Below, piece by piece: positions 11,748-55,980 of a DNA stretch of 64,000 nucleotides. Within the stretch, counting starts at the first letter, position 1; every line of letters starts with the position of its first letter. The notes under the pieces were generated by a model that searched no databases, was not told where the DNA came from, and saw only the letters and a list, made by a program, of their open reading frames with translations. The stretch lies in NCBI GenBank assembly GCA_964366355.1, contig CAYITO010000001.1, forward strand, positions 2,459 through 66,458, written 5' to 3'. This stretch comes from an uncultured archaeon. Lineage in GTDB: Archaea > Aenigmatarchaeota > Aenigmatarchaeia > CG10238-14 > SCSR01. The position numbers and the translations under genes are program-made.

Positions 11748-11781
11748 AACTACATTTAATAAATTGAATTTAAAATAGTAT

Positions 11782-12072: not shown

Positions 12073-12117
12073 TTTCCTGTTTTTTGGTATGACAATATCT
12101 GTGAGGAGCTAAAATTT

Positions 12118-34137: not shown

Positions 34138-34152
34138 TCTATCACAAATCAG

Positions 34153-34223
34153 AGCTCGGGAGGGGAATCGAACCCCCTTGCGCCGCTCTGCAGGCGGCTA
34201 CATATCCAATCTGCCACCCGAGC
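34153..34223 (-). tRNA. tRNA-Cys (anticodon GCA)
   Basis: Reverse complement is GCTCGGG-TG-GCAGATTGGATATGT-A-GCCGC-CTGCAGA-GCGGC-GCAA-GGGGGTTCGATTCCCCT-CCCGAGC-T. It folds with a 7-bp acceptor stem, a 5-bp anticodon stem, a U-GCA-GA loop, a GGGGG/CCCCT T-stem with TTCGATT loop, and discriminator U. CCA is not encoded. Confidence 0.8.
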
Positions 34224-38386: not shown

Positions 38387-40573
38387 TTACGGCGAAACAA
38401 TCCCAGACGCCGTGTCATTGTATCCTGTTGAGTTTACAGTGACATTTGTTGGATATACCCCGCCGCTAGAATAATTGGTTTCAATTACGATGAACAAGGG
38501 CTCTGTAGTGTTTAATGTCACATCTTGATTGGATGATATGCTTTGGGCATCAGTCTTGAACAGCCATGAAACCGCCCTCTGGCCTATGTTGTTTACTGCG
38601 GTAATTAATTGTATAGTGCTGCCCTGGCTTTCCGAGAATGTGGAATGCTCGGTTATCTCAACCATCTTTACGACGAACCTGTCGACAAGAGAATCGAGGA
38701 AAGAGCCGCTGTATGCGTTTATTGTGTTTGACTTGTTGCCTTGGGTTGTGTAGTTGTGCCTGTGGGAGACATTGGTCGCCCCGCCTCTTGGCAAGGTTGA
38801 GATGTTACTGTTGGTGACGCTAGGATCAGTCATGTTCCAAGAAACAGCCAAGTCCTGCGGCCAGTAGTTCTTGATTGTGAAGTTGGTTGTCCTGTTGGTC
38901 TCCCTCTCCCTATAGCTGTTGTAGTTTTCTATTTCTATAGATTTCAAAGTAAATGTCTCATTGAATCTGTCGCTTAAGCCTCCGGAAGAAACTACTACAG
39001 AAACATTCTTATCTCCCTCCGTTGTGTAGGTTATATCCTGTGTTATTTGTCTTGACTGGTTTGTGGCTAATGTAAGAGAGTTTGAAAAGGTCTGCCCATC
39101 ACTGATGATGTGCCATGTTATCGTAGATGGATAATAGTAATTTGTGATGTTGAACTTTACCAGCCTATTGTTTCCTGATAGCGAGCTCGCATTGTAGTCT
39201 TCTATAGCTATTCCCTTGATTTCAAAATTGATTGTCTTTGAATGGTTGCCATCTGTTGAATTTGCAATGCAAGTGAAAGTCTTCTTCCCTGGCAATGAGT
39301 AATTATAATTAAATGTGATGTTTCTGTATTCCTTGGCAGCCATGGTGAATGAGGAGTTGGACGACCTCCCTTCGCTGCAGTCCCAATTGACGCTTGAAGA
39401 CGCGACATCCATGTCGTTGAATATCTGCAGGCTGAAGTTCACCAAAGTCCTGTCTTGGTTGGGAGTTGACAAGTCCGTTATCTTGATTCCAAACTTTGCA
39501 TTTAGATTTTCAAAATCTACTGAATTGCTTGCTGAGCGTCCAGTGATATTTATCCTGTAGTCTCCTGCGCTGGTGTAGTTGTTCGCGGCTACAACCAATA
39601 TAGATTCGTTGTTCAGGATGTCGAATGCGATTGCTGAATTGACCAGTATGGTGCCGAAGTCTATGCTCCAAGCGCCGCTGGTTGCAGTTGTGTTCTTCTC
39701 GTTAGCAAGGTAGAATTGAATTGTTCTTGTCCTGTTGGTTGAATAGAGCTCTCCTTGGTTGATTACATCTATTCCTGCATCGCCAGTCACTATTTGGAAT
39801 GGCGCATGGACTGGAGTTCCGTTGTAGACGAACTTGGTCGTGTTGATGCTGTTCCTGACAATTTTCAGGATGTTGCCTATTGCATTGTAGGAATAGTAGA
39901 ATGTCTGACCACCTAAGCTGGCATTTACTAGCCTGTCCAAGAAATCATAGGTCATGTTGTACGTCCTGCCGTTTGCCTTGTCGTCTATCACAATGATGTT
40001 GCCAACCTTGTCATAGTAGTAAGTCAGATTTTGTACGCTTCCTGTCCTTATCTGCGCCAGCCTCGCATTCTGGGAGTCGTATGAGAACTCAGTAACCCTT
40101 GTATTTGCATAAGTTCTATTTAGAGGATTGTCGAACGCGTTGTGGAATGTGCTGTTGATAAAATCAATTATTTTTGATATCTTGCTCTGGTTGTTGTAGT
40201 TGTAGTCCGTGGTTATGCCTGGGCTGAGCGTTTGTTTCACCAGCCTGTCCATGGAGTCGTAGTAGTTCCTTTTCTCGAAAATGATTCCGTCTATGGTTCT
40301 AGTTTCTTTAGTTACTCTGAGCTTGTCATCGTATTCGTATTTGAATGTTGAGTTGCTGAAGGTGATGTTGGTTAATGTCCCCTCGTAATCCTTGTCGTAT
40401 GCATAGGTGATGTTTATACTTGTCATGTTTTTCGTAAGTATTCTGTTCAATGCATCGTAGGATATGTTCACTTGGTTTGTTGGGTTGTCGTAGGTGAGAT
40501 TTTGCACAGAGGCTACGGCTAATTGTGGCAATGCTAGCAAAAACAAAATAAAAACTATTGTTTCAGTTTTCAT
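38387..40573 (-). CDS. Secreted YD-repeat protein with tandem Ig/PKD-like, N-glycosylation-sequon-rich C-terminal repeats
   Basis: Signal peptide MKTETIVFILFLLALPQLAVA. N-terminal RHS/YD-type repeats (..YAYDKDY.., ..YYDSMDRLV.., ..YDFLDRLV..). The C-terminal half has ~100-aa internal repeats with very many N-x-S/T. Confidence 0.7.
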   Translation of the reverse strand: MKTETIVFILFLLALPQLAVASVQNLTYDNPTNQVNISYDALNRILTKNMTSINITYAYDKDYEGTLTNITFSNSTFKYEYDDKLRVTKETRTIDGIIFEKRNYYDSMDRLVKQTLSPGITTDYNYNNQSKISKIIDFINSTFHNAFDNPLNRTYANTRVTEFSYDSQNARLAQIRTGSVQNLTYYYDKVGNIIVIDDKANGRTYNMTYDFLDRLVNASLGGQTFYYSYNAIGNILKIVRNSINTTKFVYNGTPVHAPFQIVTGDAGIDVINQGELYSTNRTRTIQFYLANEKNTTATSGAWSIDFGTILVNSAIAFDILNNESILVVAANNYTSAGDYRINITGRSASNSVDFENLNAKFGIKITDLSTPNQDRTLVNFSLQIFNDMDVASSSVNWDCSEGRSSNSSFTMAAKEYRNITFNYNYSLPGKKTFTCIANSTDGNHSKTINFEIKGIAIEDYNASSLSGNNRLVKFNITNYYYPSTITWHIISDGQTFSNSLTLATNQSRQITQDITYTTEGDKNVSVVVSSGGLSDRFNETFTLKSIEIENYNSYRERETNRTTNFTIKNYWPQDLAVSWNMTDPSVTNSNISTLPRGGATNVSHRHNYTTQGNKSNTINAYSGSFLDSLVDRFVVKMVEITEHSTFSESQGSTIQLITAVNNIGQRAVSWLFKTDAQSISSNQDVTLNTTEPLFIVIETNYSSGGVYPTNVTVNSTGYNDTASGIVSP

Positions 40574-40877
40574 ATAAGCCTCTTTTAATCCTCTGACCGA
40601 ACGGGTCGTAGGAGTATTCTTCAACGATTGGGAAAGTTGCGTCTATTTCTACCGAATAGTTTTCCAAAAATATTTCAAATCCGATTAGGTAGTGTGAAAA
40701 GTTGCCGATGGTGTTGTTATCTTTGTCTGCTATAGTTCCTAGAGTTTCGAAGATGGTGAGGTTGGTGGGAAAGGGAAAAGAAGTTTCAGTTGAAGGTTCT
40801 GTATAATCTAATGCCTCAGCTTCTTGTGTAAATAAAATTATTGTTAGAAGTAATGTAAGTAAAAATAACAATCTCAT
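40563..40877 (-). CDS. Small secreted protein ending in an Rhs-like YDPFGQRIK motif (possible Rhs-derived fragment)
   Basis: Signal peptide MRLLFLLTLLLTIILFTQEAEA. C-terminus ..EEYSYDPFGQRIKRG is identical over 9 aa to ..YTYDPFGQRIKIS in the large Rhs protein. Confidence 0.45.
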   Translation of the reverse strand: MRLLFLLTLLLTIILFTQEAEALDYTEPSTETSFPFPTNLTIFETLGTIADKDNNTIGNFSHYLIGFEIFLENYSVEIDATFPIVEEYSYDPFGQRIKRGLYEN

Positions 40878-41476
40878 TTTTTACTCTCCTTTGTAAAATA
40901 ATACTCTATGTTAGAGTCGTAGACTTCTCTAAGTCTGTGAGAGGAATATGTTTTGTCCAAAAGTCCAGTAGCAAAAACTTTTACTAAATGTATAGGATTT
41001 ACTGGTATCTTCCCACCGACTAAAACAGGTTTATGGTAATCTATATCATTTTTAGGTTTCTTGATAAAGTCCCATTTAAGTCCTTTTACATTTTTTCTAA
41101 ATGTTTCACCAAGATACATTCCTATATCGTAACATAAGGAAAGTGTTTCCTTAGACAGGTCTACTTTCGGTATATCCACATGCGGTTTTAAGTGCCCCGG
41201 AATTCCACTCTCAATTTTTTCAATTTCATTTTTAGTCAATTTTCTACTTGTTATGCGTTTTGCAAACCATTCACCTAAATATTTTAGAGACTCTGGAGAA
41301 AAGTTTAGTTTTCTAGGGTCGTATCCAGTATTTTGCGCCGTTTTTTTAAAAATTTCTATCCTTCCCGGTATAGATTTAACAAACCATTTTAGAAATTTTT
41401 CAGCTTCTTTCTCGGACATTTCTTTGAAGCTTCTTTTGATCGGAAATTCTATTAGTTTATAATTTCTTACGGCCAT
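40874..41476 (-). CDS. Candidate Rhs immunity protein (cytoplasmic, no signal peptide)
   Basis: 200-aa ORF overlapping the 3' end of the rhs gene by 10 nt. Position is typical of rhsI immunity genes. No known family recognised. Confidence 0.5.
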   Translation of the reverse strand: MAVRNYKLIEFPIKRSFKEMSEKEAEKFLKWFVKSIPGRIEIFKKTAQNTGYDPRKLNFSPESLKYLGEWFAKRITSRKLTKNEIEKIESGIPGHLKPHVDIPKVDLSKETLSLCYDIGMYLGETFRKNVKGLKWDFIKKPKNDIDYHKPVLVGGKIPVNPIHLVKVFATGLLDKTYSSHRLREVYDSNIEYYFTKESKK

Positions 41477-44400
41477 TTTATTTTCACCTGTGAAACAACA
41501 TACGAAATAGCACCTTTAGTTTGTTCTATTGACTTTTCAAATTCTTTTAATGCACCCCTTGTGAATCCAGACTTTCCAGTTATAGGACTTTCAAATAAAA
41601 CCCACTGTATACTTTTCTTTACACCACTTTGCACTAGTTCTATGTCTTTTGCTATTTGGGCTTTAAAATCTTTTGTTGCAGAAACTCTTCCAACTTTGAC
41701 TTCAAATGCTTTTCCAGTTTGCGGTACTATTACATCTGGAATGCGTTTGCCTTGACTAGTAGATAATGGTTGCTTATTAAGCACTCCTCCTTCTTGCTTA
41801 GCTATTGTGCTTTCTGAGCTTTTGCTTATTTGTTTGTTTATTTCGATTTGTTTGGCTTTTTCAATATTTCTACTAATATCAGTAATTTTACCACCAGAAC
41901 TAATCGCATTAATCCCAGCTTCAGCTCCTTTTACTACAACTCTCCCGCCAGTCAAACCAGGAGCAGCCAACCCGCCTATATCAGCAATCAAAGAACCATA
42001 ATTCCAAAGATTAGTTGGATCATCTTGTATATCCCGTATATCCATAGTTATGAACGCTACATCTACAGCAGATTCTAAGTATTTTCCACAAGGATCCTTG
42101 TACTTGTAAGGGTTGCCTAGCGCATACGAGTACCTATTCAGAAACTGCGGGTTATACGGATTTTGAACTATCGGATCAGGTCGTAACCTCAATCCCCACT
42201 CAGGCTTGTAAGGAACGTTGCAAAGCATGTAAGTGTTGGTTTGGTCTTTGAATTGTCCTGTGTATAACTTCGGGTCGGCAAGACCACCTCCAAGCAACTC
42301 CCCATAAGGCGAGTAGTAACTGTTCTCGACAACATTGCCATTAGAATCAGTAATCAACGTAGTGCTCCCAAGATGGTCTGGATGGTAGAAATATTTACTG
42401 CCATCTGGATTAACTCTCGCAACAAGTATTCCTTCCTGGTATACGTAAGTGAAGTCAAAAGTGCCAGTGGAATTTTTAATTCTCATTAGCTCCTTGAACG
42501 GGATGTATACTGTCGTGTTTGTAGTGTCATTCCTAGAAATCTTTATCCTCTGCCCGAACGGGTCGTATGTATAGTTTTCTAATATTGGTGAACTAGATGT
42601 ACTGCCATTCCTAATTTTTATTAACTGATTCAATCCATCATATTCCCTGTAATATCCATCGCCAGTAACAAGATTGCCCCCACCATTCTGCCTCTGAGTA
42701 ATTAGATTGCCAACAAGGTCGTATGCATAAGTCCAATTCCCCAAATCAGGGTCGCTAAGTGCAATTCTCCTGCCAAGCGAGTCATAAGCGAATGTAAACT
42801 TGTTGCCAAGAGCATCGGTAATCTTGATTAAATTGTCTTGAGTATCATACTCGTAAGAGGTGTTGTAGACTTCCTCGGAAGTTACGTTCAATACTGCATC
42901 TAGGATTGGGTCGTTGTTGTACTCCAAGACATTTGCAATTCTATCGTACCCATCAAGCACGTAAGCTTTCCTGTGGCTGTTCTCGTCGAATGCTGTAATA
43001 GTTCTGTGATTAAATAAAATTGTCTTGTTCGTCCCGTCTGGGTTTCTAACAAAAGTCACTCTACCCAGCACATCAAACGTGTAGTTAGTGTTGTTGACAG
43101 TAGCAGACGGCGTGCTCAATCCAGTACTAAAGCTATCAAAATATGGATTCTGCTCGCTAACAACTCTGCCAAGACTATCATAGAAAAGATTCTTCACAAT
43201 CTGCTGGCTGCCGTCAGCAGGTCTTTTAAATTGAACAAAGTTGGCAAACCCGTCGTAGTAGAAGTAAGTGTCGTAAGTCTTGTTGGCAGTAGTCCTTTGT
43301 GAAACTTTGATTATCTCAGGCGCAACCCCGTCGAATATGTAGGTGTAGTTTTTGGTAGGCAGTTCAAAGCTATCAAACGGCTGCACTTCCTTGGCAATCC
43401 TTCCAAAAACATCATAGTGATAAGAGGTATTCACATCATTCGAAAACTGCCACAATAGGTTCCCAGTACCCAGATCATACTTGTAGTCAGCCCTGTGAAA
43501 TAGCGCATTGGTAACCGCATCAGGATAAGTGAATGTAGTGTCCCTAAAGCCGAAGTTATATCTTACAACCCTTCCAAGAGGGTCTGTCTGCCTAACCACA
43601 TTCCCGAAAGGATCATAATCATACTTGACGACATGCCTTCCCCCAGTGTCAACCCAAGTATCAATTTCTGTTACATCGCCTTTAGTAGCATTCGAACCGT
43701 ATGGCAATCCATCATAAGAATACCTGACATCACCAACTTTGGTGGAATTGTCCGATGAAAATAGTTGATACTGCTTCAGCCTGTCGACAATCCATGAAGT
43801 GCTGTTGACAACATAGGAATACCTCTCGTACTTCTCATCTCCAGTTACATTGACATCGCCAAAGAATACACTCGAGACAAGATTCCCGAAATTGTCGTAT
43901 GAATAAGAGGCATTCGTCACCTTGGCGCCGGTGGAGTTGCCATCATGCAAATAATTAGCCTGCGAAAGAAGGAAAATCTTGAAATAGCCGCTGGTGTTGG
44001 TGAAATTGTACACGCTCTCATCCTTCGAGAAAATGCTGCCCGTGGAATTAAACACCTCTGTCTTGTATTCCGTCCCCCTCCTCGCATCATCCTGGTGGAA
44101 GTAATGGCTTACCAACGAGTTATCAGGCAGCGTCTCGTTCACAACCCCGAATCCCCTAAACTCAAAATCGTCATAATCGTAGCTGGCATTCGCATACGTG
44201 TAATTGAACCTTCCGACAACGCCGAATGCATTGGTCATGGAGTTGTTCTGCGTTGCATTCGCCACGACCCAGACATTGAACCCGATGTCGGAAACGTTAT
44301 TGGTTCCGTTGTTGCCGAATGACGTGGAGGCGGTATAGTTTATCGACTCTATCGCAATAACCCCGCCAAGCTCGTTGACGATGCGCTTGAGCAGGAAAGG

Positions 44401-46383
44401 CGTGGTCTGGTTCTTGATCCAAGTGAACTTGGTGCTGCCGTTGGCTATGAATATGTCCATGAAGCCGTCGCCATTTGCATCCGACACCCTCCTCCCAATA
44501 TTCCTCCCGTTCATTATGAAAACCTCAGGAGACCCCCATGAGTTGTTCATCGTCCACCCATTCCCATTATTCAGCCAAGTGTTCCTCGACGAAGTGCTTT
44601 CATTGAAGTAATCCTCAATAATGTCAACCAAACCATCGCCGTTTATATCGGCAAACCTAACCCCCCTGTCAGGATTGCTGCCAGTCACAAAATCAATCGG
44701 GGGAGCCCACACGGAGGAAAAGTCCGCCCAAGTGCCATTCCCCATGTTGAGCCACGCATTATGCCCGTTGTGCCCCTTGATGATATCAACCAATCCATCC
44801 CCATTAACATCCTCCAGCCTCGCCCCCGTGTCCACACCCGTGCCGTCTATGAACTCCACAGGAGCCACCCACACAGAGCTCACATTAGTCCACCCGTCGC
44901 CGTTGTTTACAAACGCGCTTTTGTTGCCGCCTCTCGACTGCAGTATGTCGACCCTCCCGTCGCCGTTGAAATCAACCAAATGAGTCCCGCCGTCAAAACC
45001 GCCCTGGAGAAAATAAACAGAGTTTGGTAACTTCCATGCGGCCGAACTGTTCCACCCCGTGCCGTTGTTGAGCCACGCCAGCCTCGTGTCAGGCGTGTTC
45101 TTCGACTGCACGATATCCATCAACCCGTCATTGTTCAAGTCCGCAAACCTCACGCCCTGGTCAGCATCGTTGCTGTCGACAAAATAAATCGGCGGGGCAA
45201 ATGAATTGTCAGGCACGAAATTGCCGTTCCTGTCGTTTACCCAAGCCCTCTTGTCCGCATTGATTTCCCTTCCCAGCAGCACATCAACAAACCCGTCGTT
45301 ATTGAAATCGACCAGCCTCGCCCCGTGGTCAGACGTCTCCACGGAAAAATCCGTGGGCATCACCCACTTTGTGAAAGACTTGCTGAAATTTGCGCCAGGA
45401 GAATGATAGTCGAACGATATCTGGTGAAGCAGCGAGACCCCGTCAGAGCCGAAATATTTCATCCTCCCCAAAGACGACAAGGACCTCTCTGCGCTCAAGT
45501 TCAGATATTCGAAGCTATAATTTCTGACCAGCTTGCCGTCTGCAAACACGTGAATATTTTCAAGCCTCCTGCTTTCATTAAGAATGTTCCCCTGCTCAAA
45601 CACCGTCCTCTTGTCAGGCCTTGCGGAACCCTCGTAGACAAAATCTATAACTCTCCTCCTGTCATTGTTGTACTGTATCTGAACCAGGTATGCGGCACCG
45701 TTGTCCTCTGAGTTTGGGTCCTCAGAATAATGGTAAAATATCTTGTTGTCGTGGGTGTCGTTAACCAAATCAACGCTCCACCTGACAGCATAATTCTTTC
45801 CCGTATTCGACGCCAGTTCAGAATAGTTGCTGTATCCAAACCTGTACTGCGTGCCGTCCTTTGCAGTAACAATCCAGTAAAGGCCATAGGTGTTGTTGAT
45901 GCTTGACGAATTCTGGATCTTCATGAACGACTCAATCCTGGTATGGAACAACCCGTCATTGCTGTCATAAACCAATTCATAAGCATTGCCGTTTAGGATT
46001 AGTTTGAACTCGTCGTCGGGCGTGCTGGCCGCCGTGCCGTTCACATCCCTGAACACATAGCTCTGCGTCAACTGCCATCCGCTGCCGAGTACTCCAGGCC
46101 TCTGCTTCACACTCTGGCTGTTGTACGTTATTGACAGAAATGGCTGCAATCCATTGGTGCCTTTAGGAACCTCTATGGGATACGCGTAAGTAGCCGCTCC
46201 AGTGAACAAGTTTGTGCTATAGCTCCCGTACAATTTCACCTTCGGATGCTCGGGGATATTGGCCTTATGCAGGTAAGGCTTGTAGGAGTCGTCGGCAGCA
46301 ATCGATGCGGGAACTAAAACCAGAAAACTGATGAGAACCAAAATCAAATTCTGGTTTGTTATAATCCAAATGCATCTCACCAT
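41467..46383 (-). CDS. Rhs/YD-repeat polymorphic toxin, TcB/TcC-like architecture (SpvB N-domain, FG-GAP-like beta-propeller, RHS shell, Rhs core, C-terminal toxin domain)
   Basis: Signal peptide MVRCIWIITNQNLILVLISFLVLVPASIAA. SpvB-like ..VKQRPGVLGSGWQLTQSYV.. Six or more D-x-N-x-DG-x-x-D repeats (FVDFNGDGRVD, FADLNNDGLMD, LEDVNGDGLVD, FADINGDGLVD..). Many YDxxGR-type repeats. Rhs core ..YYSPYGELL..YMLCNVPYKPEWGLRLRPDP..LNRYSYALGNPYKYKDPCGKY. Then a ~220-aa unique C-terminal domain. Confidence 0.85.
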   Translation of the reverse strand: MVRCIWIITNQNLILVLISFLVLVPASIAADDSYKPYLHKANIPEHPKVKLYGSYSTNLFTGAATYAYPIEVPKGTNGLQPFLSITYNSQSVKQRPGVLGSGWQLTQSYVFRDVNGTAASTPDDEFKLILNGNAYELVYDSNDGLFHTRIESFMKIQNSSSINNTYGLYWIVTAKDGTQYRFGYSNYSELASNTGKNYAVRWSVDLVNDTHDNKIFYHYSEDPNSEDNGAAYLVQIQYNNDRRRVIDFVYEGSARPDKRTVFEQGNILNESRRLENIHVFADGKLVRNYSFEYLNLSAERSLSSLGRMKYFGSDGVSLLHQISFDYHSPGANFSKSFTKWVMPTDFSVETSDHGARLVDFNNDGFVDVLLGREINADKRAWVNDRNGNFVPDNSFAPPIYFVDSNDADQGVRFADLNNDGLMDIVQSKNTPDTRLAWLNNGTGWNSSAAWKLPNSVYFLQGGFDGGTHLVDFNGDGRVDILQSRGGNKSAFVNNGDGWTNVSSVWVAPVEFIDGTGVDTGARLEDVNGDGLVDIIKGHNGHNAWLNMGNGTWADFSSVWAPPIDFVTGSNPDRGVRFADINGDGLVDIIEDYFNESTSSRNTWLNNGNGWTMNNSWGSPEVFIMNGRNIGRRVSDANGDGFMDIFIANGSTKFTWIKNQTTPFLLKRIVNELGGVIAIESINYTASTSFGNNGTNNVSDIGFNVWVVANATQNNSMTNAFGVVGRFNYTYANASYDYDDFEFRGFGVVNETLPDNSLVSHYFHQDDARRGTEYKTEVFNSTGSIFSKDESVYNFTNTSGYFKIFLLSQANYLHDGNSTGAKVTNASYSYDNFGNLVSSVFFGDVNVTGDEKYERYSYVVNSTSWIVDRLKQYQLFSSDNSTKVGDVRYSYDGLPYGSNATKGDVTEIDTWVDTGGRHVVKYDYDPFGNVVRQTDPLGRVVRYNFGFRDTTFTYPDAVTNALFHRADYKYDLGTGNLLWQFSNDVNTSYHYDVFGRIAKEVQPFDSFELPTKNYTYIFDGVAPEIIKVSQRTTANKTYDTYFYYDGFANFVQFKRPADGSQQIVKNLFYDSLGRVVSEQNPYFDSFSTGLSTPSATVNNTNYTFDVLGRVTFVRNPDGTNKTILFNHRTITAFDENSHRKAYVLDGYDRIANVLEYNNDPILDAVLNVTSEEVYNTSYEYDTQDNLIKITDALGNKFTFAYDSLGRRIALSDPDLGNWTYAYDLVGNLITQRQNGGGNLVTGDGYYREYDGLNQLIKIRNGSTSSSPILENYTYDPFGQRIKISRNDTTNTTVYIPFKELMRIKNSTGTFDFTYVYQEGILVARVNPDGSKYFYHPDHLGSTTLITDSNGNVVENSYYSPYGELLGGGLADPKLYTGQFKDQTNTYMLCNVPYKPEWGLRLRPDPIVQNPYNPQFLNRYSYALGNPYKYKDPCGKYLESAVDVAFITMDIRDIQDDPTNLWNYGSLIADIGGLAAPGLTGGRVVVKGAEAGINAISSGGKITDISRNIEKAKQIEINKQISKSSESTIAKQEGGVLNKQPLSTSQGKRIPDVIVPQTGKAFEVKVGRVSATKDFKAQIAKDIELVQSGVKKSIQWVLFESPITGKSGFTRGALKEFEKSIEQTKGAISYVVSQVKIKWP

Positions 46384-48338
46384 CACGACATTCTGGTATT
46401 TGCAATGAAGTTCTGCACATCGGTTGTGACATTTGCGCTGGTGGTCCTGTTTACCATCTCTAAAACATTCAATGCATTCCCAACACCAGGGACATTCGCA
46501 GGAGTCTGGCTGTCCGTGATGTAGTTGAAGGCCCATATCTGGCTTCCGACCCTTGTTGCCTTGTCGAACCTTCCCAAGTATTGCGAAGTGTTCGTTAGCC
46601 TGACATAGATTTGCTGGTCCGTATAGATAGGGACTGAAGTGCCGAGAGCATTTCTTATGCCGGCTATAATCGCATCCCTTCCGCTACTCTCGCTTAGGTA
46701 TGGAGATGCTGGAGGGTCCCCGCCGCCACTCACGGTAAAGACCGGAGTCATCGTTATCGTAAAAGAAGTGAGGTTGTAAATCCTCGGCTCCCCCACGCCT
46801 GCATTTGAGTTATTGTAGAAATAAATGTCATCATACTCGCAATCTCCCCCCGTTTTTTCAATTCCGAAATATGTGATTCCCGTAGCATCAGTGGTATTGG
46901 AAAAGCTGTGATTCCAACCCACATGCTCGTCTATGCTATTTAACCATGCCTTCCCGTAAAGCCTTTCCTTCAACTCTATTTTCATCATGTACTGGACATT
47001 GGTGCTTGGAAATGGAGCTCCAAATGTCTGTGCTCCCTGGTTATAATCATCAACCGCAAAGAACCCGCCATCTCCACCTACTCCAAACAGCCTTTGACTG
47101 CCTTGAATAGTATTCCCATTGTGGTATATGTCAATTCTGCACCTGTCTCCAGTACTTCTAAGCAACAGCTTTCCATAAGCCCCGACTGTCCCATTAGTTT
47201 TTGGATTGATTGCTGGAATATTCCTTAATGCAAATGCAAATCCAGGGTCACTCCCCATTTTTACAATTTTATTTGAAAAGGTCGGGCTTCCAGTAGTGGT
47301 AAATCCACCTCTGTCTCCTGCATCATAAGTTTCATTAGTTATATACCAAGTAACATTTCCAAAAGTTGTAACCGCTGAATCATTGAACCACACATGAACA
47401 GGATTTGTGTTCATATCAGAGGTTGCCCTGAAATTAATCTGCGTCCTGTTTCCAGATGTCGTGTTGCACCCGCTCAATTCAAGAGTCCCTATTCCGAATT
47501 TAAGAGCCGTATCATTAGCATTGTTGGTTAGTCTTATATCCTGACAGGCATCTCTAATGTCAACAGAAGCATCAAACCCAGAAGCCCTTGCCAGTTCCAC
47601 CCATATCGTCGCATTCTCAACCGAAGCGCTTGTCGATATGCCTATAACCTTGTTGTAATTCTCAAACGTCACAGCCCAATCAAATTTCTTGTACGTCTGA
47701 TTCAAAACTTTCACCGCAGGAATGACATCCCTCTTGTTCAACCCGAGCTGCCTTTTGAAGTATGTTATGTATTGAATCTCGATGTTTTCGTTCGGCTTGA
47801 GCCTTAGTTTTGCCCTCCCGTCCTTTATCTGGGTTATGTTCACCCATCCAGAGTCCACAAGTACCTTGTAGGTTGAGGGATTCCCGTCCACCTGAACCAA
47901 TTGTAGTTCGCTCCAAGTTATCGTTCCGTTAGGGAATGTCTCGGTGTGTGAGATTGTATTTTCAACAACCGTCTTATTTTGTACAACTACTTCCTTCAGG
48001 GTTGTATTTTTAACTAAGATGTCAAATCCGTTGCTTTGTTGAGCCACGCCTTCAAGCAACTCCTCCCATTCAAATTCAAACTCCTGTTCTGTCGGCAATG
48101 GGTTTTTAAGAGTAAATCGAATCGACGAGCCTATCCTGTCGCTCATTTGCTGCTCCCTTCTGACCTCCAACAGTTCAGCAAAGATGCTGTCAGCCGTATA
48201 TGCAGGCTGTGAAAAGACTTGAGATGCTAAAGCCAAGGTTAGCAAAGACGCAATTAGAAAAAAGGCGGTAAAGAATACTGATGCAGAACGGCTTTTCAAT
48301 TCGACTAAGCGCATTATAAATGAATCAAGCACTGTCAA
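46383..48338 (-). CDS. Secreted N/T/G-rich protein of unknown function, stop overlapping the rhs start
   Basis: Signal peptide ..VFFTAFFLIASLLTLALASQVFSQPAYTA. Its stop TGA overlaps the rhs start ATG by 1 nt. Confidence 0.6.
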   Translation of the reverse strand: MTVLDSFIMRLVELKSRSASVFFTAFFLIASLLTLALASQVFSQPAYTADSIFAELLEVRREQQMSDRIGSSIRFTLKNPLPTEQEFEFEWEELLEGVAQQSNGFDILVKNTTLKEVVVQNKTVVENTISHTETFPNGTITWSELQLVQVDGNPSTYKVLVDSGWVNITQIKDGRAKLRLKPNENIEIQYITYFKRQLGLNKRDVIPAVKVLNQTYKKFDWAVTFENYNKVIGISTSASVENATIWVELARASGFDASVDIRDACQDIRLTNNANDTALKFGIGTLELSGCNTTSGNRTQINFRATSDMNTNPVHVWFNDSAVTTFGNVTWYITNETYDAGDRGGFTTTGSPTFSNKIVKMGSDPGFAFALRNIPAINPKTNGTVGAYGKLLLRSTGDRCRIDIYHNGNTIQGSQRLFGVGGDGGFFAVDDYNQGAQTFGAPFPSTNVQYMMKIELKERLYGKAWLNSIDEHVGWNHSFSNTTDATGITYFGIEKTGGDCEYDDIYFYNNSNAGVGEPRIYNLTSFTITMTPVFTVSGGGDPPASPYLSESSGRDAIIAGIRNALGTSVPIYTDQQIYVRLTNTSQYLGRFDKATRVGSQIWAFNYITDSQTPANVPGVGNALNVLEMVNRTTSANVTTDVQNFIANTRMS

Positions 48339-48472: not shown

Positions 48473-48793
48473 ATGATAGAAAATTCACTTGAGAAGGTCA
48501 GGGAAGCGGAAAATCGTGCAGCTAAGATTATAGAAGATGCCAATCAAGAGAAGGAAAACATAATTGCTGAAGCCAAGAAAAGAGCGTTGGGCATTATAGA
48601 AGAACTTGAGGAACAATCAAGAAAAGACCGTGCGAAGCTGCTTGAAAAATTGAAAAGGGAACTAGAGGAAGAGAAGAGCGAGAAGATTGAAACCGCGGAA
48701 TTCAGCATAAAGAAACTCAAGACCGATTCTAAAAGCAAAACTTCAGGCCAAGTCAGCTTTCTGTACGAGAAATTTCTCGAGGCGATAGGATGA
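48473..48793 (+). CDS. atpH: A1A0 ATP synthase subunit H
   Basis: Short charged coiled-coil protein first in the atp operon (..LEKVREAENRAAKIIEDANQEKENIIAEAKK..). Confidence 0.65.
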   Translation: MIENSLEKVREAENRAAKIIEDANQEKENIIAEAKKRALGIIEELEEQSRKDRAKLLEKLKRELEEEKSEKIETAEFSIKKLKTDSKSKTSGQVSFLYEKFLEAIG

Positions 48794-50592
48794 TAAAACC
48801 GAAAGAAATGACAATGGTAAGAATAATCAGTCCTTCCAACAAGGCGTATAGTGTTATCGAATCTTTATACGAAATGAAAGTATTGCATATTCTTGATTTC
48901 AAGAAGGGCGAGAAGGAGTTCTTCGATATTGGCAAGCCATTCAAGGAGGCATCCAGCTATTCAGAGCAGCTGATTGCTTTGCGTTCCATGATAGCAAGGC
49001 TGAAGATATCAGGCAAGCCTAAGCATTTGAAGAACTTCCATGAAGCCCAAAAAAATTTTTTACATTCGAATGAAACCTTCAGGCGCATTATCGAAAAGAT
49101 GGAAAAGGCAAAAGCAGAAGAAACCGAGCTCTCGGAGGAAGCCAAAAACCCATTGATAAATCTCGGCATCGCCCGAGCTGAAATAAAGGAATACAAATCA
49201 CTTGTAAGTTTTCTGGGCACTGTAAAATCTCCGATCGAACCAAAATTGCAATCCATAACTTCCGATTACACCCTTCTTCAAAAAAAATTGGAAAAGCAAA
49301 TTGCAGTTGCACTTTTTGTAAAACGCGGAACAGAAGAAAAAACAAAAGAGCTGCTGAGCAAGTCCGGTTTTACCGAATACAAGCTTCCCGGTTTAAGCAA
49401 GTCAGAAATCGAGGAAAGGCTGTCCGAAATTAAAGAAGAGATAAGCACTTTAGAAAAGCAGCTGGAAGATTTCAAGAAAACAAACTCACAATTTTTGATC
49501 AACTATGAATTTGCATTGGCTGAGTTGAATGAAAAGGCAGAAGTGCCATTGAGATTTGCTGCGAGCAGGAGCACACTTATTGCTATAGGTTGGGTGCCTG
49601 CTGACACGGCTGAGGCACTAAAGCAAAATTTGGCTGAAGTAGCTAAGGGAAAGGTTTCTGTAGAATTAATGCAAGGCAAAAACCCGCCGACTGTCTTGGA
49701 AAATTCCAAATTGGCAAAACCATTTGAACTTCTTCTGGATTTGTATTCCTTGCCAAGATATTACGAGATTGATCCTACAGTGCTGATGTTCATAGCATTT
49801 CCTTTATTCTTTGGCTTCATGCTTGGCGATGTCGGCTACGGATTGATCACTTTTTTTGCCATGCTTATGATCGGAAAGGTGGTGCCGGTTGAAGTCAAGC
49901 CTTTGTTGAGGATAATAACCATCTCGGCTTTGGCAAGCATAGCATTCGGTTTTGTATTCGGCGAATTTTTCGGACATGAGTTCATCAAGCATCCCATTTT
50001 GAACAGAGTACATGACATAAACACAATGATGCTGATATCGGTTGCAGTTGGAGTTGTGCATTTAAATCTCGGTCTGGTTTTGGGCATAATTAATGAGATG
50101 AAGCATCACAACTTTTTCGTCGCTTTCCTGAAGAAAGGTTCATGGATGGTTCTTCAAGTTGCAGTTGGAATTCTCGGCTACGGTTTCTTGCAATCAAACC
50201 GAACTTTCGAGATTGCCGGTGGTGCGTTGTCGATAATTTCCATAGCAATGATAATCAAGGGCGAAGGTCTGTTGAGAATCGTCGAACTTCCTGCACTTCT
50301 GTCAAACATTCTATCATACATGAGATTATACGCAATCGGTCTTGCGTCAGTTTCATTTGCGGCAGTAATCAACAACTTGTCATCCGGCCTTTTTGCACAA
50401 GGCGGTTTAATGATGATAGTCGGCGCAGTTATTTTACTCTCAGGCCATCTGGTGAATTTGTTGCTCGGTCTTTTAGGACCATTCTTGCATTCACTCAGAT
50501 TGCACTATGTTGAGTTTTTCCAAAAATTTTATGAGGGAGGAGGCTACAAGTATAGCCCCTTCGGAATAGTTAAAATGTTAGGAGGTAGATAG
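48790..50592 (+). CDS. atpI: A1A0 ATP synthase subunit I (a-subunit, membrane)
   Basis: Soluble coiled-coil N-domain plus a C-terminal multi-TM domain containing ..LSYMRLYAIGLAS.., the conserved Arg helix. Confidence 0.85.
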   Translation: MIKPKEMTMVRIISPSNKAYSVIESLYEMKVLHILDFKKGEKEFFDIGKPFKEASSYSEQLIALRSMIARLKISGKPKHLKNFHEAQKNFLHSNETFRRIIEKMEKAKAEETELSEEAKNPLINLGIARAEIKEYKSLVSFLGTVKSPIEPKLQSITSDYTLLQKKLEKQIAVALFVKRGTEEKTKELLSKSGFTEYKLPGLSKSEIEERLSEIKEEISTLEKQLEDFKKTNSQFLINYEFALAELNEKAEVPLRFAASRSTLIAIGWVPADTAEALKQNLAEVAKGKVSVELMQGKNPPTVLENSKLAKPFELLLDLYSLPRYYEIDPTVLMFIAFPLFFGFMLGDVGYGLITFFAMLMIGKVVPVEVKPLLRIITISALASIAFGFVFGEFFGHEFIKHPILNRVHDINTMMLISVAVGVVHLNLGLVLGIINEMKHHNFFVAFLKKGSWMVLQVAVGILGYGFLQSNRTFEIAGGALSIISIAMIIKGEGLLRIVELPALLSNILSYMRLYAIGLASVSFAAVINNLSSGLFAQGGLMMIVGAVILLSGHLVNLLLGLLGPFLHSLRLHYVEFFQKFYEGGGYKYSPFGIVKMLGGR

Positions 50593-50596
50593 AAAA

Positions 50597-50824
50597 ATGG
50601 CAGTAGATATAGGAACAGGATTGCTAGGACTCGGAGCCGGTATTGCAATAGCTGGAGGAGCGCTAGCTGCAGGTATAGCTGAAAAGGATATAGGAACCGC
50701 AGCAATAGGCGCCATGGCTGAAAAAGAAGAGCTTTTTGGTAAAGGCTTGATTCTTACAGTCATTCCTGAAACATTAGTCATCTTCGGCATGGTTGTAGCA
50801 ATACTGATACTAGGCAAAGCATGA
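50597..50824 (+). CDS. atpK: A1A0 ATP synthase subunit K (proteolipid c-subunit, single hairpin)
   Basis: 75-aa Gly/Ala-rich hairpin with the ion-binding Glu in ..LTVIPETLVIFG.. Confidence 0.85.
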   Translation: MAVDIGTGLLGLGAGIAIAGGALAAGIAEKDIGTAAIGAMAEKEELFGKGLILTVIPETLVIFGMVVAILILGKA

Positions 50825-50836
50825 TAGAGAATAAAC

Positions 50837-51400
50837 ATGGGATTGGAAAATGTAATAGATGAAATTATTTCGCAGGCTGAAAAGCAGAAGCAGGAAATAA
50901 TTGATCAAGGCAAGCAGGAGGCCAAGAAAATAGTAGACGAAGCTATGCGCAAGGGAAATGAACAGGCCAAAAAATTCGATGAGGAAACGAGAAGAATAAT
51001 CGGCGAAACTAAAAAGATGGAACTTTCGGCAGGCAATATCAAAACGCATAAGATGATGCTTGAGGCAAAGAAGAGCATACTTGACGAGGTCTACAATCAA
51101 GTGATTGAGAAGGTAAGCAAGATTGACTCTTCCAAGCGAAAGGAAATCTTGCACAAGTTGGTGGAAAGGGCGGAGAAGGAATTGGAGGATGCAAAGTTTG
51201 TTTACTGTGCTGGTCGAGATAAGGAACTCGTTTCGGACATGAAAGGCTTGAAATTCGGGGGCGAGATTGATTGCATCGGCGGTGTGATAGTAGAAAATTC
51301 CAGCAAAACCATCAAAATAAATTACACATTTGATGTGCTGCTTAAGGATGTGAAGGAGATATATCTGAATGAAATTTCAAAAAAAATCTTTCAAAGTTAG
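50837..51400 (+). CDS. atpE: A1A0 ATP synthase subunit E
   Basis: Position in operon and charged coiled-coil N-terminus typical of subunit E. Confidence 0.75.
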   Translation: MGLENVIDEIISQAEKQKQEIIDQGKQEAKKIVDEAMRKGNEQAKKFDEETRRIIGETKKMELSAGNIKTHKMMLEAKKSILDEVYNQVIEKVSKIDSSKRKEILHKLVERAEKELEDAKFVYCAGRDKELVSDMKGLKFGGEIDCIGGVIVENSSKTIKINYTFDVLLKDVKEIYLNEISKKIFQS

Positions 51401-51401
51401 G

Positions 51402-52313
51402 ATGAAAAAACATCCTGCACGTGCGGTGAGGGTATCTCCATATACCTACACTAGAGTAAAGGCTATGAAGGCAAAACTGCTTGGAAAGGAAGACTACCAG
51501 AAGTTCCTCAAGATGTCCCAGGAAGAGATTGCAAGATACCTGCAGGAGACTGAATACAACAAGGAAATCACAGAGCTTGCCATGAAATTCAGCGGGACAA
51601 ACCTCATTGAATACGGATTGAACAGGAATTTGGAGAACACGTTTTCGAAAATATGGAAAATTGCATTGCGACAGACCAAAGAGCAAATCGGACTTTACCT
51701 GAGACGCTACGATATAGCAAACATAAAAACAATTTTGAGGGGCAAATACGCCAAAGTCCCGAATGAGAAAATAATCAATGAGTTGGTTGTGAGTGGGGAA
51801 TTGTCAAGGAACTTTTTTGAACTGGTGATAAAGGAATCAACGAACTTGGAAAGCGCGATAGAATATTTCAAGAGAACTGAATACTATCCTGTTTTGAAAA
51901 AATTTTCAAACAATTTGACAAAATTGGAAGACGAGCTGGACAAACTTTATTTTTCGATGGCATTGGATGCTGCCGGAAAGGACCTCAAAGATTACATACA
52001 GATGGAGATTACAATTAAAAATGCATTGAATAGATTAAGAGCAAAGAAGGCTAACATAAACGTCGAGCTTCTCCTGGGCGAGAAGAAAATAAAGATACCA
52101 TATCAGGACGATTCTGTTGAGGCGAGAGTCTTCATGAAGAAACTTTTAATCGAAAGGGCAATCAGGATGGTGCACGAAGCCAAGCTCAATCTCAAGCCAA
52201 TCTTGGGCTATTTCATCGCAAAGGAAAATGAAATCAGCAACATAAGAATGATAACGCGGGGGAAGCATGCGGGATTGGGCGAAGAATTAATCCAGAGGCA
52301 GTTGGTGATCTGA
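51402..52313 (+). CDS. atpC: A1A0 ATP synthase subunit C
   Basis: Position in operon. ~300-aa helical protein. ATG at 51402 follows the atpE stop. Confidence 0.75.
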   Translation: MKKHPARAVRVSPYTYTRVKAMKAKLLGKEDYQKFLKMSQEEIARYLQETEYNKEITELAMKFSGTNLIEYGLNRNLENTFSKIWKIALRQTKEQIGLYLRRYDIANIKTILRGKYAKVPNEKIINELVVSGELSRNFFELVIKESTNLESAIEYFKRTEYYPVLKKFSNNLTKLEDELDKLYFSMALDAAGKDLKDYIQMEITIKNALNRLRAKKANINVELLLGEKKIKIPYQDDSVEARVFMKKLLIERAIRMVHEAKLNLKPILGYFIAKENEISNIRMITRGKHAGLGEELIQRQLVI

Positions 52314-52609
52314 TGGAGATAGCAGTAGTTGGAAATGACGATTTTGTAACCGGCTTTTCATTGGCAGGCGTAAGATATTATTTCACTTCAGAAACTAACC
52401 TCGACCAAAAAGTCGAAGAGGTTTTGAAATACGATGAGATAGGCGTGTTGGTCATGGAGGAGGAACAATTTAAATCGTTGAACAGCAAAACTAGAAAGAT
52501 GCTCGAAAAATTGGTTAAACCTGTCTTGGTTTTGGTCTCTGACACAGGAAAGGAGACAGATCTCAGGCAGATGATAAAAAGAAGTTTGGGTGTTGACTTA
52601 TGGCGATAG
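52313..52609 (+). CDS. atpF: A1A0 ATP synthase subunit F
   Basis: [20 protein letters not shown].., the typical subunit F N-terminus. Confidence 0.8.
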
Positions 52610-54339
52610 GCAAGCTATACCGTATATCCGGCCCGGTAGTAGTTGCAGAAGGATTAGACGCAAAGATGTACGAATTGGTAAAAGTTGGAAATGAAAAACT
52701 ATTGGGTGAAGTAGTTCAGATAACAGGAGACAGAGCTACAATACAAGTTTATGAAGAGACTATTGGTCTGAAGCCTGGCGAGCCGGTTGAAGGCACTGGG
52801 GCTTCGCTTTCTGTAGAGTTGGGACCTGGATTGTTATCACAAATTTATGACGGCGTACAAAGGCCGTTGCCAGTTTTGCATGAGTTCGGAGGAGAATTTA
52901 TAGCTCGAGGCATCACGGCGCCTGCGTTGGATGAAAATAAAAATTGGGAATTCGTTGCAAAAGTTGGGAAGGGCGACGAGGTTGCAGGCGGCGACACACT
53001 CGGAACAGTTCAGGAAACAAAACATTTCGAGCATAAAATTTTAGTTACTCCCAACGTCAAAGGAAAAATAAAAGAAATAAATTCCGGCAAGTTCAACATC
53101 AGACAGCCTATCGGGGAATTGACAAACGGAACGAAATTATATCTGTCTCACAAGTGGCCAGTTAGAACTCCAAGACCTGTCAAAGAAAAATTGATGCCGA
53201 CACTACCAATGATAACAGGACAGAGAATACTTGATGCTCTATTTCCAATTGCCAAAGGCGGGACGGCTGCAATGCCAGGGCCATTTGGATCAGGAAAAAC
53301 TGTAACACAACAACAATTAGCAAAGTGGAGTGATGCGAAGATTGTAGTCTACATCGGATGCGGCGAAAGAGGAAACGAGATGACCGAAGTTTTGACAGAA
53401 TTTCCAAAATTAATCGACCCTTATACAAATGCTCCCTTGATGGAAAGAACAGTTTTGATTGCAAACACGTCAAACATGCCGGTTGCTGCGAGAGAAGCAT
53501 CAGTTTACACAGGCATGACGATTGCAGAATACTTCAGAGATCAGGGTTATGATGTTGCATTGATGGCTGATTCAACCAGCAGGTGGGCAGAGGCAATGAG
53601 AGAAATTTCTTCTAGATTGGAAGAGATGCCTGGCGAAGAGGGATACCCAGCTTATCTTGCTGCAAGATTGTCGGAATTTTATGAAAGAGCGGGAAGGTGT
53701 ATTTGTCTTGGTAGTGACAAAGAAGGTTCCATCACTGCAATAGGTGCAGTGTCGCCTCCAGGAGGAGATTTTTCAGAACCTGTGACACAGAACACTCTGA
53801 AGATAACAAAAGTTTTCTGGGCTCTTGATGCGAGACTCGCTCAAAGAAGGCACTTCCCCGCAATAAATTGGTTGGATTCCTATTCGCTTTACAAGGACAC
53901 TCTGGCGCAGTGGTATATTGACAAAGTTGCAGACGATTGGAATGATATAAGGCAAAAGGCAATGGAGATTTTGCAGCAGGAGGCATCGTTGCAGGAAATA
54001 GTCCAGCTGGTTGGAAGCGACGCACTGCCTGAAAAAGAAAGGCTTACGATTGAAATCGCAAGGATGATTCGTGAAGGATTCCTGCAGCAGTCCGCATATC
54101 ACCCGGTTGATTCTTACTGCAGCCTGAAGAAGCAGTACGGCCTTTTGAAATCTATAATGAAGTTCAGAGAGTTGGCATTCCAATCTCTTGACGAGGGTGC
54201 GAACTTACCAGCAATAGCTGCGCTTGACATCAAGACAAAACTTATAAAAGCTGCTCTGATAGATGAGAAGAGCTTCGAACATGAAATCAAGAAGATAAAC
54301 GAGCAGATGGGCTCAGACTTCAAAGGATTGGTTGTATAA
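52600..54339 (+). CDS. atpA: A1A0 ATP synthase catalytic subunit A
   Basis: Walker A ..GPFGSGKTV.. plus the non-homologous region typical of A/V-type A subunits. Confidence 0.95.
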
Positions 54340-55714
54340 TATGAAGGAATACAGGACAATATCACGAATCGCAGGACCATTGGTTTTTGTAGAGAAGACG
54401 CACGAGGTTGCATACGGGGAGCTTGTTGAAATAGAATTGGACGGACAAAAAAAGTCAGGACAGGTTCTTGACACTTCCAAGGATATTGTCGTCGTGCAGG
54501 TTTTCGAGGGAACATCCGGGATAGATAGAAATTCAACTGTGAAATTTTTGGGCAGGACAATAAAGCTCAGCTGCACCAAAGAACTTATGGGAAGAATTTT
54601 GGACGGGTTGGGAAGACCAATCGACGGCGGGCCTGAAGTGATTCCAGACGAGCAAAGGGATGTAAATGGCTCAGCAATGAATCCCTATTCCCGTGATGCT
54701 CCAAGAGATTTCATACAGACAGGCATATCATCAATCGACGGAATGAATACACTCGTGAAAGGCCAGAAGCTTCCAATATTTTCCGGTTCAGGTTTACCCC
54801 ATAACGACATAGCATTGCAGATAGCGCGACAGGCAAAGGTCGGCAAGAATTTCGCCGTAGTTTTTGTAGCGATGGGAATAACAAACGAAGAAGCTCAGAG
54901 GTTCATCAAGGAATTCGAGCATACCGGGGCGCTGGAAAGGGCTGTCGTATTTTTGAACTTGGCTGACGACCCTGCGATTGAAAGATTGGTGACGCCGAGA
55001 ATGGGACTGACTGCGGCAGAGTATCTTGCATTCACCCATGGGATGGATGTTTTGGTTATTTTGACAGACATGTCCAGCTATTGTGAAGCACTACGTGAGA
55101 TAGGTGCAGCACGCGAGGAAGTTCCTGGAAGAAGAGGATATCCTGGCTACATGTACACAAATCTCGCATCACTTTACGAGAGGGCGGGATTGATAAAAGG
55201 GAAGAAGGGATCGATAACACAATTTCCAATTTTGACTTTGCCGGGGGATGATATAACTCATCCGATACCTGATTTGACCGGATACATCACGGAAGGGCAG
55301 ATAGTTCTTTCAAGGGAGTTGCATGCAAAGGGAACCTATCCTCCTGTGGATGTGCTGCCGTCGTTAAGCAGGCTGATGCAGATTGGAATCGGCGCTGGCA
55401 AGACTAGGGATGACCACAGGGCTGTTAGCAACCAGTTGTATGCTGCGTATGCCGAAGGAAGATCGTTAAGAGGATTGGTTGCAATTGTCGGCGAAGAGGC
55501 GTTGACGGAAAGGGACAGGGCATACCTGAAGTTTGCAAAAACATTCGAGGAGCAGTTCGATGGACAAGGAAAGACTGAGGACAGAAGCATAGAGGAGACT
55601 TTGAACTTGGGATGGAAGCTGCTGCAATTGATGCCGAGGAATGAATTGATAAGAATTGATGATTCATTGATAGAGAAATATTCTAAGCAGTTGGATTTGA
55701 AATTTGCTGGATAA
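54332..55714 (+). CDS. atpB: A1A0 ATP synthase subunit B
   Basis: ..[11 protein letters not shown].. N-terminus, ..[22 protein letters not shown].. Confidence 0.95.
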
Positions 55715-55980
55715 CCGTAGGTTTAAAACTGAAATTTTTATTGATACCCATTTGATGCCCTATAAATCACCATATGGTCAGAGGGTAATATCCCATATAC
55801 AGGAACTAATTCAAGGCCAGTCAACTGAGGCAGTAAATACGGCAGAGTTGGAGAATGAATAACTCTCCCATTAGGATTCCTTGAAGTAGGTCTAGTTTTA
55901 ACCCCCCAGCGCAACATATTGTCGTGCAATTCTACTTATTTCCACTCGTCTACCCATAGTCATAATATCATCCATCCTGC

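Follow-up and report, generated by a model that had tools for sequence, protein, structure and literature searches.

A probable Rhs toxin-immunity pair with a predicted PD-(D/E)xK nuclease tip in an Aenigmatarchaeota-like archaeon

We analysed a 64-kb stretch of archaeal DNA from contig CAYITO010000001.1, hereafter the window, and in particular a minus-strand gene for an Rhs protein together with the gene for a protein of 200 amino acids (aa) that overlaps its 3′ end. We consider it highly probable that in this DPANN (Aenigmatarchaeota-like) archaeon the two genes work as a polymorphic toxin-immunity module, with an Rhs carrier bearing a PD-(D/E)xK nuclease as its C-terminal tip and the 200-aa protein providing the cognate immunity. 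What we show is the anatomy of the genes, the family membership of the carrier, the conservation of the tip, its predicted fold and the linkage between toxin and immunity genes. An earlier note on this DNA had proposed such a pair from motif spacing and gene position, and we describe how its claims fared where the relevant results are given.

Results

A conserved C-terminal toxin domain

The open reading frame (ORF) list places the Rhs ORF on the minus strand at 41467..46536 (1689 aa), with the sequence quoted in the earlier note at its C-terminus. The Rhs core ends at DPCGKY (ORF residues 1481-1486, 42079..42096). The earlier note had treated the ~220 aa after this motif as the nuclease region; a tip is indeed present there, but it comprises 203 aa, of which only the last 115 form the nuclease domain and the preceding 88 a linker. 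A phmmer search with the 115-aa tip against 1.84 billion representative proteins gave 290 matches at E ≤ 1e-3, the lowest E-values reaching 1e-11. The alignment ends no more than 26 residues from the C-terminus of the protein in 147 of the best 150 of these 290 matches, and the carriers on which the family is found include RHS, PT-HINT, PT-TG, DUF6443, PKD, SpvB/FG-GAP and CdiA or 'filamentous hemagglutinin' proteins. Placement at the C-terminus of such varied carriers is the signature of a polymorphic-toxin tip.

Across alignments of 40 and 50 members, domain residues R24, D27, E38, K40, G42 and G83 are invariant, while G22, Q53, K56, D57, W71, S76, T79 and G80 are nearly so; the Rhs tip itself contains GKRIPDVIVPQTGKAFEVKVGRVSATKD. 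Taken on its own, a D-x10-E-x-K string is weak evidence for a nuclease, but invariance of its three residues throughout a family of this kind appears to be more than chance. The D ... E-V-K spacing picked out by the earlier note corresponds to D1601 and E1612-V-K1614, both present, and is the same as this invariant core. When the 220-aa tip was used instead, a word-indexed homologue search returned no match, and no NCBIfam model matched it. The motif strings of the toxin family likewise matched nothing in the literature and supplements searched.

Predicted fold of the toxin domain

We modelled the 115-aa domain with AlphaFold2 from a 50-sequence alignment, obtaining a predicted local distance difference test score (pLDDT) of 95.4 and a predicted template-modelling score (pTM) of 0.87. 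The elements of the model (H2-8, E17-19, E22-24, E28-30, E35-41, H48-62, E68-74, H86-98 and E103-107) provide the alpha-beta-beta-beta-alpha-beta core of the PD-(D/E)xK superfamily, with D27 where the second core strand begins, E38-x-K40 within the third, and Q53, K56 and D57 on the next helix. Judged from this model, the 115-aa domain is a PD-(D/E)xK core, and the fold that the earlier note had suggested is recovered in prediction, with canonical topology and with D27 and E38-x-K40 rightly placed. Foldseek matched the model to the toxin structure 4G6U (probability 0.98) and to SfsA (probability 0.99, template-modelling score 0.56), with weak E-values.

The earlier note had also named the Tox-REase families as a comparison by which to check the C-terminus. 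A restriction-endonuclease (REase)-type fold is indeed predicted, but the family is not Pfam Tox-REase-7 (PF15649). The match of the Rhs tip to that model is confined to profile positions 22-61 and scores 13.0-13.8 bits (E 0.07-0.13), under the gathering threshold of 25.

A linked candidate immunity family

The 200-aa gene starts 10 nt ahead of the Rhs stop codon, and the overlap of 10 nt reported by the earlier note is found at 41467..41476. The note's statement that the protein has no signal peptide also agrees with our hydropathy analysis (19-residue Kyte-Doolittle, first 60 window starts), in which the N-terminus is not hydrophobic and the maximum is 0.25, compared with 2.45 for the Rhs signal segment. 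N-x-S/T sequons number 49 in the Rhs protein but just 1 in the 200-aa protein.

The one homologue in the indexed protein database is 63% identical and directly follows a homologous Rhs tip (locus L005). Two more distant toxin homologues, one on a Prevotella DUF6443-Rhs protein (L006) and one on a haemagglutinin-type protein (L007), have 3′ of them genes whose products show 32-35% identity to the 200-aa protein. Scanning species-representative genomes with the 200-aa protein gave 24 bacterial loci, distributed among Flavobacteriaceae, Riemerella, Prevotella, Bacteroidales, Parafilimonas, Caulobacteraceae, Anaerolineae, Aggregatilineales, Phycisphaerales and Lachnospiraceae, and the toxin domain lies directly 5′ of the immunity gene in 7 of the 10 genome loci that have enough upstream sequence. 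We also scanned metagenomes with a narrow four-sequence toxin alignment, which sampled one subgroup and gave 80 loci; in 78 of them an immunity-family gene stands immediately 3′ of the toxin, at a median gap of 4 nt (range -10 to 68). One of the others has no immunity gene in the 505 nt downstream, and one has too little sequence to judge.

The pair is present in L006, L007, L032, L033 and L034, which include Prevotella, Burkholderia, an Aliiroseovarius SpvB/TcaC protein and a second archaeon. In L032, on plasmid pBcn842-1 (NZ_CP015032.1) of a clinical isolate of Burkholderia cenocepacia, a CdiA-type protein ends in the toxin domain and the downstream 192-aa 'hypothetical protein' WP_154817265.1 is a clear member of the immunity family (E 1e-42), neither gene being annotated as such. 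The rhsI-type role that the earlier note had assigned to the 200-aa gene is supported by the presence of a family member directly after the toxin domain both in the metagenomic loci and in these.

Altogether the immunity family is found at more than 100 homologous loci. The earlier note had said that the 200-aa protein belongs to no recognisable family, and this is true of curated libraries, in which the protein and 14 family members match no Pfam or NCBIfam family and PDB-sequence searches give chance-level results only, but it does not extend to sequence databases at large. Weak Pfam matches to DUF6278 were seen in 3 of 14 immunity members (best E 0.014) over a conserved G.Y.GE region; we did not accept them, and the family may be distantly related to DUF6278. 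Among bacterial metagenome-assembled genomes (MAGs), three loci (L011, L016 and L022) carry immunity-family genes with no detectable upstream toxin domain and are possible orphans, and two (L012 and L025) carry tandem copies.

The 200-aa protein has the generic traits of an immunity protein, being encoded directly 3′ of the tip, tracking the toxin from carrier to carrier, being cytoplasmic and occurring as orphans and arrays. Its predicted role as the cognate immunity protein is supported by this conserved neighbourhood as well as by position.

The Rhs carrier and gene layout

The positions of the genes, domains and predicted catalytic codons are collected in Table 1. The matches to SpvB, FG-GAP, TcdB_toxin_midN and RHS_repeat are all above the Pfam cut-offs, while that to PF03527 (RHS) is below it (23.7 vs 27.9 bits). 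Within the FG-GAP region a 42-nt DNA repeat occurs in five copies at a spacing of ~165 nt. Read from these matches, the order of domains is that of a fused TcB-TcC/Rhs cocoon. DPCGKY is presumed to be the autoproteolytic boundary; in the closest relative, L005, the same position is occupied by DPSGHL. The 88-aa linker has no Pfam match at E ≤ 1. By eye it contains a PT-TG-like stretch (..PGLTGG..), and its identification as PT-TG was set aside for want of Pfam support.

The ORF is open further upstream, and its first 51 codons overlap the 3′ end of the 651-aa gene that precedes it. We take M52 as probably the real start, because its ATG (46383-46381) has one base in common with the TGA stop of the upstream gene and because a strongly hydrophobic segment, LILVLISFLVLVPASIAAD, follows just after; that segment is probably a Sec signal peptide, to judge from its hydropathy.

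Table 1. Features of the Rhs locus, with positions in the window
Feature	Position	Strand	Details
Upstream 651-aa gene, secreted-type product	46383..48338	-	many N-x-S/T sequons; stop overlaps Rhs start
Rhs / TcB-TcC-like gene, predicted polymorphic toxin	41467..46383	-	likely product 1638 aa from M52; ORF open upstream to 46536
N-terminal hydrophobic segment LILVLISFLVLVPASIAAD, probable Sec signal peptide	46291..46347	-	19-residue Kyte-Doolittle 2.45 at residue 13 of M52 product
SpvB/TcB N-terminal domain	45625..46206	-	Pfam PF03534, E 1.2e-9, 38.2 bits, residues 111-304
FG-GAP repeat (beta-propeller) region	44455..45324	-	Pfam FG-GAP_3 PF13517, E 1.3e-22, 80.6 bits, 5 stretches
TcdB middle/N-terminal domain	44056..44496	-	Pfam PF12256 TcdB_toxin_midN, E 2e-15, 57 bits, residues 681-827
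YD/RHS-repeat shell	42316..44055	-	Pfam RHS_repeat E 1.1e-23, 83.5 bits (cut-off 22); TIGR01643 E 8.5e-16, 57.7 bits (cut-off 15.8)
Rhs-associated core ending in DPCGKY	42079..42315	-	TIGR03696, residues 1408-1484, 32.0 bits vs cut-off 32.5
88-aa pre-toxin linker	41815..42078	-	aligns with linker of L005
Predicted PD-(D/E)xK nuclease toxin domain	41470..41814	-	ORF residues 1575-1689, last 115 aa
Codon of D1601 (domain D27), predicted metal-binding Asp of 'PD' element	41734..41736	-	invariant column; N-terminus of strand 28-30
Codons of E1612-V-K1614 (domain E38-x-K40), predicted (D/E)xK element	41695..41703	-	invariant columns; inside strand 35-41
Predicted cognate immunity gene, 200 aa, cytoplasmic	40874..41476	-	conserved neighbourhood after toxin homologues; no hydrophobic segment
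Downstream 104-aa ORF, signal-like N-terminus	40563..40877	-	ends in YD motif YSYDPFGQRIK; start overlaps immunity stop
Downstream 745-aa YD-repeat protein (728 aa as called elsewhere), signal-like segment	38387..40624	-	RHS_repeat + TIGR01643; no toxin tip

Five packed genes on the minus strand (38387..48338), namely those for the 651-aa protein, the Rhs protein, the immunity protein, the 104-aa ORF and the 745-aa YD-repeat protein, overlap one another by 1 to 62 nt and look like one operon. The 745-aa protein matches Pfam RHS_repeat (E 4.2e-9) and NCBIfam TIGR01643 and has 5.6 sequons per 100 aa, while the 651-aa protein has no Pfam or NCBIfam match and is an unproven candidate for a part of the toxin system. 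N-x-S/T sequons are frequent, at 3-5.6 per 100 aa, in all four operon proteins that bear signals and suggest that these are glycosylated archaeal surface proteins.

The Rhs gene (42542-42588) and the end of the 104-aa ORF (40585-40631) have a 47-nt direct repeat in common (79% identity); it covers the shared peptide YDPFGQRIK and could be a recombination remnant or simply a conserved YD motif. Compared with L001 and the window, the gene calls of the replicate assembly L002 (ENA ERZ1292627) split both the Rhs gene (577 + 425 aa) and the 745-aa gene (79 + 621 aa), which may reflect strain-level frameshifts or assembly errors. In the protein database the Rhs protein is present only as this 425-aa fragment (P0003).

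Host and genomic context

The operon is flanked by archaeal genes, among them an A/V-type ATPase operon and the genes for transcription factor S (TFS), glutamine synthetase, Endo_dU and a signal peptidase I of archaeal type that scores above the TIGR02228 cut-off. The adjacent TFS falls in the same cluster, at ≥90% identity, as a protein from a 'Candidatus Aenigmarchaeota archaeon' MAG (NCBI: Archaea; Nanobdellati), and the source contigs come from Hainich groundwater samples collected on 0.1-µm filters. The host is archaeal, an Aenigmatarchaeota-like member of the DPANN. A chimeric contig, in which a bacterial toxin had been joined among archaeal genes, was considered and rejected, as the same arrangement was assembled in three samples. 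A second locus with archaeal context, L034 (JGI 3300021167, 10859-12124), has genes for primase, L44e, S27e and eIF2-alpha as neighbours; there a PKD-repeat protein of 1947 aa bears the same toxin tip, and after it comes a 421-aa protein in which two immunity domains are fused.

Another way to view the locus is through its base composition. The Rhs body has a content of guanine plus cytosine (GC) of 45.5%, compared with 36.2% for the toxin domain and 32.5% for the immunity gene. Followed along the locus, GC declines from 43-54% over the Rhs body to 35% at the tip and to 32-33% through the immunity gene and the small ORF after it. The immunity gene lies in the lowest 2% of 600-nt windows of the contig. 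Low-GC cassettes of tip plus immunity gene are known from bacterial rhs loci. The archaeal tip and immunity gene make up a low-GC cassette of a type common to bacterial Rhs, CdiA and Tc-like toxins, and this points to gain by horizontal transfer and cassette exchange.

Elsewhere in the window, the GC minimum lies at 1-800 (~28-31% in 600-nt windows, against a mean of 40.7%), with further dips near 11550-12000, 20550-20750 and 31150-31500. The A/V-type ATPase operon (subunits I, C/AC39, A and B) and glutamine synthetase, housekeeping archaeal genes, occupy 48790-57423. The sole tRNA in the window is a tRNA-Cys (GCA) on the minus strand (34152-34223), and no Rfam family reached its gathering score anywhere in the 64 kb.

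Discussion

Several results weigh against the interpretation of the locus as a nuclease toxin with its immunity gene. The toxin family reached no Pfam or NCBIfam model in a scan of 40-50 members, and even the weak match to Tox-REase-7 belongs to this Rhs tip, being found in 0 of the other 39 of the 40 family members scanned. Neither phmmer nor a family-profile search of PDB sequences with the toxin domain gave anything beyond chance (none at E ≤ 10), and our literature search found no biochemical data for any member of the toxin family. The spatial clustering of the catalytic residues is read from topology and secondary-structure position, and the structure model of the immunity protein, built from an alignment of two sequences, is unusable (pLDDT 36.4). 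The 80 metagenomic loci (L036-L115) represent one fairly close subgroup (56-78% identity) and are not independent samples. Lastly, the Rhs core is atypical, with DPCGKY for DPxGL, YKP for YDP and a TIGR03696 score of 32.0 vs 32.5 bits, and the 64-kb window contains no TcA-like translocator, no type VI secretion system (T6SS) and no other known delivery apparatus.

We nevertheless propose a mechanism in which export, autoproteolysis, metal-dependent cleavage, the substrate, neutralisation, the delivery route and the target are all inferred. A carrier of ~1640 aa would be exported by the Sec route through its N-terminal signal peptide and would fold as a shell of the TcB-TcC/Rhs type, in which an SpvB N-domain, FG-GAP propeller and TcdB-mid domain are combined with a YD-repeat cocoon. 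The shell would enclose the C-terminal tip and release it autoproteolytically at the Rhs core boundary (..KDPCGKY|). Beyond the 88-aa linker, the freed 115-aa domain would act as a metal-dependent PD-(D/E)xK endonuclease, with a predicted catalytic set of E1575 as the acidic residue of helix 1, D1601 and E1612-x-K1614, joined by Q1627, K1630 and D1631 on the following helix. In the target cell the toxin would cut nucleic acid, most likely DNA, with tRNA as the main alternative, while in the producer the 200-aa cytoplasmic protein would bind and block the nuclease. We favour DNA as the substrate on the grounds that the best structural matches are to proteins acting on DNA, an argument also made by Zhang et al. 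(PMC3482391).

A rival reading keeps the same architecture and immunity logic but takes the PD-(D/E)xK domain to be an RNase, for example one that cleaves tRNA; we think this unlikely, yet a real alternative. Some toxins of this fold at the C-terminus (CT) of CdiA in Burkholderia pseudomallei (1026b, E479) reportedly cleave tRNA, and the archaeal tip's own family is also found on Burkholderia CdiA proteins. What we hold to be improbable is that an episymbiotic DPANN cell uses the Rhs protein mainly at its surface, for adhesion or recognition, such as attachment to its host, with the tip and the 200-aa gene left over in a decayed or non-antagonistic form. DPANN archaea rely on contact between cells, the operon includes four signal-bearing, sequon-rich proteins of surface type, one of them a YD-repeat protein without a toxin tip, and the window offers no apparatus for delivery, all of which would suit an adhesin. 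Against decay, all invariant and nearly all near-invariant residues of the toxin family are kept, both genes are intact, overlapping and 53-62% identical in the second locus L005, and a full-length immunity gene has been retained, as would be expected only alongside an active toxin.

A further alternative concerns the 200-aa protein, which might be a chaperone, adaptor or maturation factor for the toxin rather than its immunity protein. Adaptor genes also adjoin effector genes in bacterial systems, and the structure model of the 200-aa protein yields no usable fold. However, its family tracks the toxin on any scaffold, whether Rhs, CdiA of the type V secretion system (T5SS), SpvB/TcaC or PKD; its gene lies 3′ of the toxin and not 5′; and it is found in orphan, tandem and fused duplicate form. 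All these traits are usual for immunity genes and not for adaptors. We therefore give this alternative very little credence, and retain the toxin-immunity module as our interpretation of the locus.

Antagonism by archaea, and by DPANN episymbionts especially, is poorly documented, and the locus provides a concrete effector-immunity pair that can be tested. The toxin family (290 representative clusters) and the immunity family both lack Pfam and NCBIfam models, and because of this their members are labelled 'hypothetical' or by the carrier alone, as with the Burkholderia cenocepacia CdiA; two new family models would improve the annotation of contact-dependent inhibition (CDI), Rhs and Tc loci. 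The occurrence of the pair in bacteria and archaea also bears on the transfer of conflict systems between domains. A bolder proposal, which we make tentatively and consider possible rather than probable, is that the tip and the 200-aa protein make up an uncatalogued toxin-immunity pair, with no counterpart in Pfam, NCBIfam or PDB, which bacterial CDI, Rhs and Tc-like systems have in common with two or more archaeal lineages, and that in addition a self-contained, Sec-exported Rhs cocoon delivers the nuclease into the host archaeon or neighbouring bacteria without T6SS or TcA. If both parts were true, the locus would hold an archaeal Rhs effector, the first to be tractable, and its route of delivery would be new. 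What stands out is the DPANN host, the lack of curated models despite hundreds of members and the presence of the pair in both domains; it is not a new principle.

Comparison with known systems

Tox-REase toxin domains of polymorphic toxin systems were described by Zhang et al. 2012 (PMC3482391), and they resemble the archaeal tip in their pattern of E, D, ExK and Q and in having an immunity gene immediately 3′. The nearest of them are Tox-REase-7 and, when judged by motif, Tox-REase-1 and -6; as with these, the archaeal toxin family has a predicted REase fold and is placed at the C-terminus of carriers of the RHS, filamentous-haemagglutinin, HINT and TcdB/TcaC types. For Tox-REase-1 and -6 (Zhang et al. 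2011/2012), which have no Pfam model and were compared by motif only, the pattern E, D, ExK, Q (plus Y for REase-6) is compatible with the archaeal toxin family but generic to the fold. The tip differs from Tox-REase-7 in its score (13 vs 25 bits) and in its partner, as the immunity protein matches no Pfam Imm family, including Imm49, Imm23 and Imm54; with regard to an Imm49 / Imm-PA2201 association, 0 of 14 immunity-family members match Imm49 or any Pfam Imm model at E ≤ 0.5. The conserved block SP.TGK.G, which follows the fourth strand in the archaeal toxin family, is not in the listed Tox-REase motifs.

The PD-(D/E)xK CdiA-CT/CdiI toxins of E. coli EC869 (PDB 4G6U) and Yersinia pseudotuberculosis (4ZQU) show no sequence relation to the archaeal tip (phmmer/hmmsearch, E ≤ 10), their immunity family is unrelated in sequence, and the archaeal carrier differs from theirs in being Rhs/Tc-like. 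The Tox-REase-5 effectors TseT/PA3907 (PDB 7DYM, 9OZ0) are 7-8% identical, have the motifs Y, FDG and EAK, are paired with Imm52 and are delivered by T6SS. SfsA, AF1548 and NucS/EndoMS, at 8-17% identity, are housekeeping or DNA-repair proteins with extra domains, none of which ever forms the C-terminal tip of a secreted repeat protein or comes with an immunity partner.

The carrier is closest to the TcB-TcC of Tc toxins and to bacterial Rhs cocoons, with which it shares the SpvB N-domain, FG-GAP propeller, TcdB-mid domain, YD-repeat shell, Rhs core and variable tip in the same order, and the bacterial protein P0113 has both the architecture and the toxin tip of the archaeal Rhs protein. It differs from these cocoons in being a single fused polypeptide of an archaeon, with no TcA, PAAR/VgrG or T6SS nearby, in having DPCGKY rather than DPxGL as its boundary motif, and in its export, which is apparently by signal peptide. 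In our view the locus is an ordinary bacterial weapon in an unusual host, and it would work like a bacterial Rhs or CdiA toxin of REase fold with its immunity partner.

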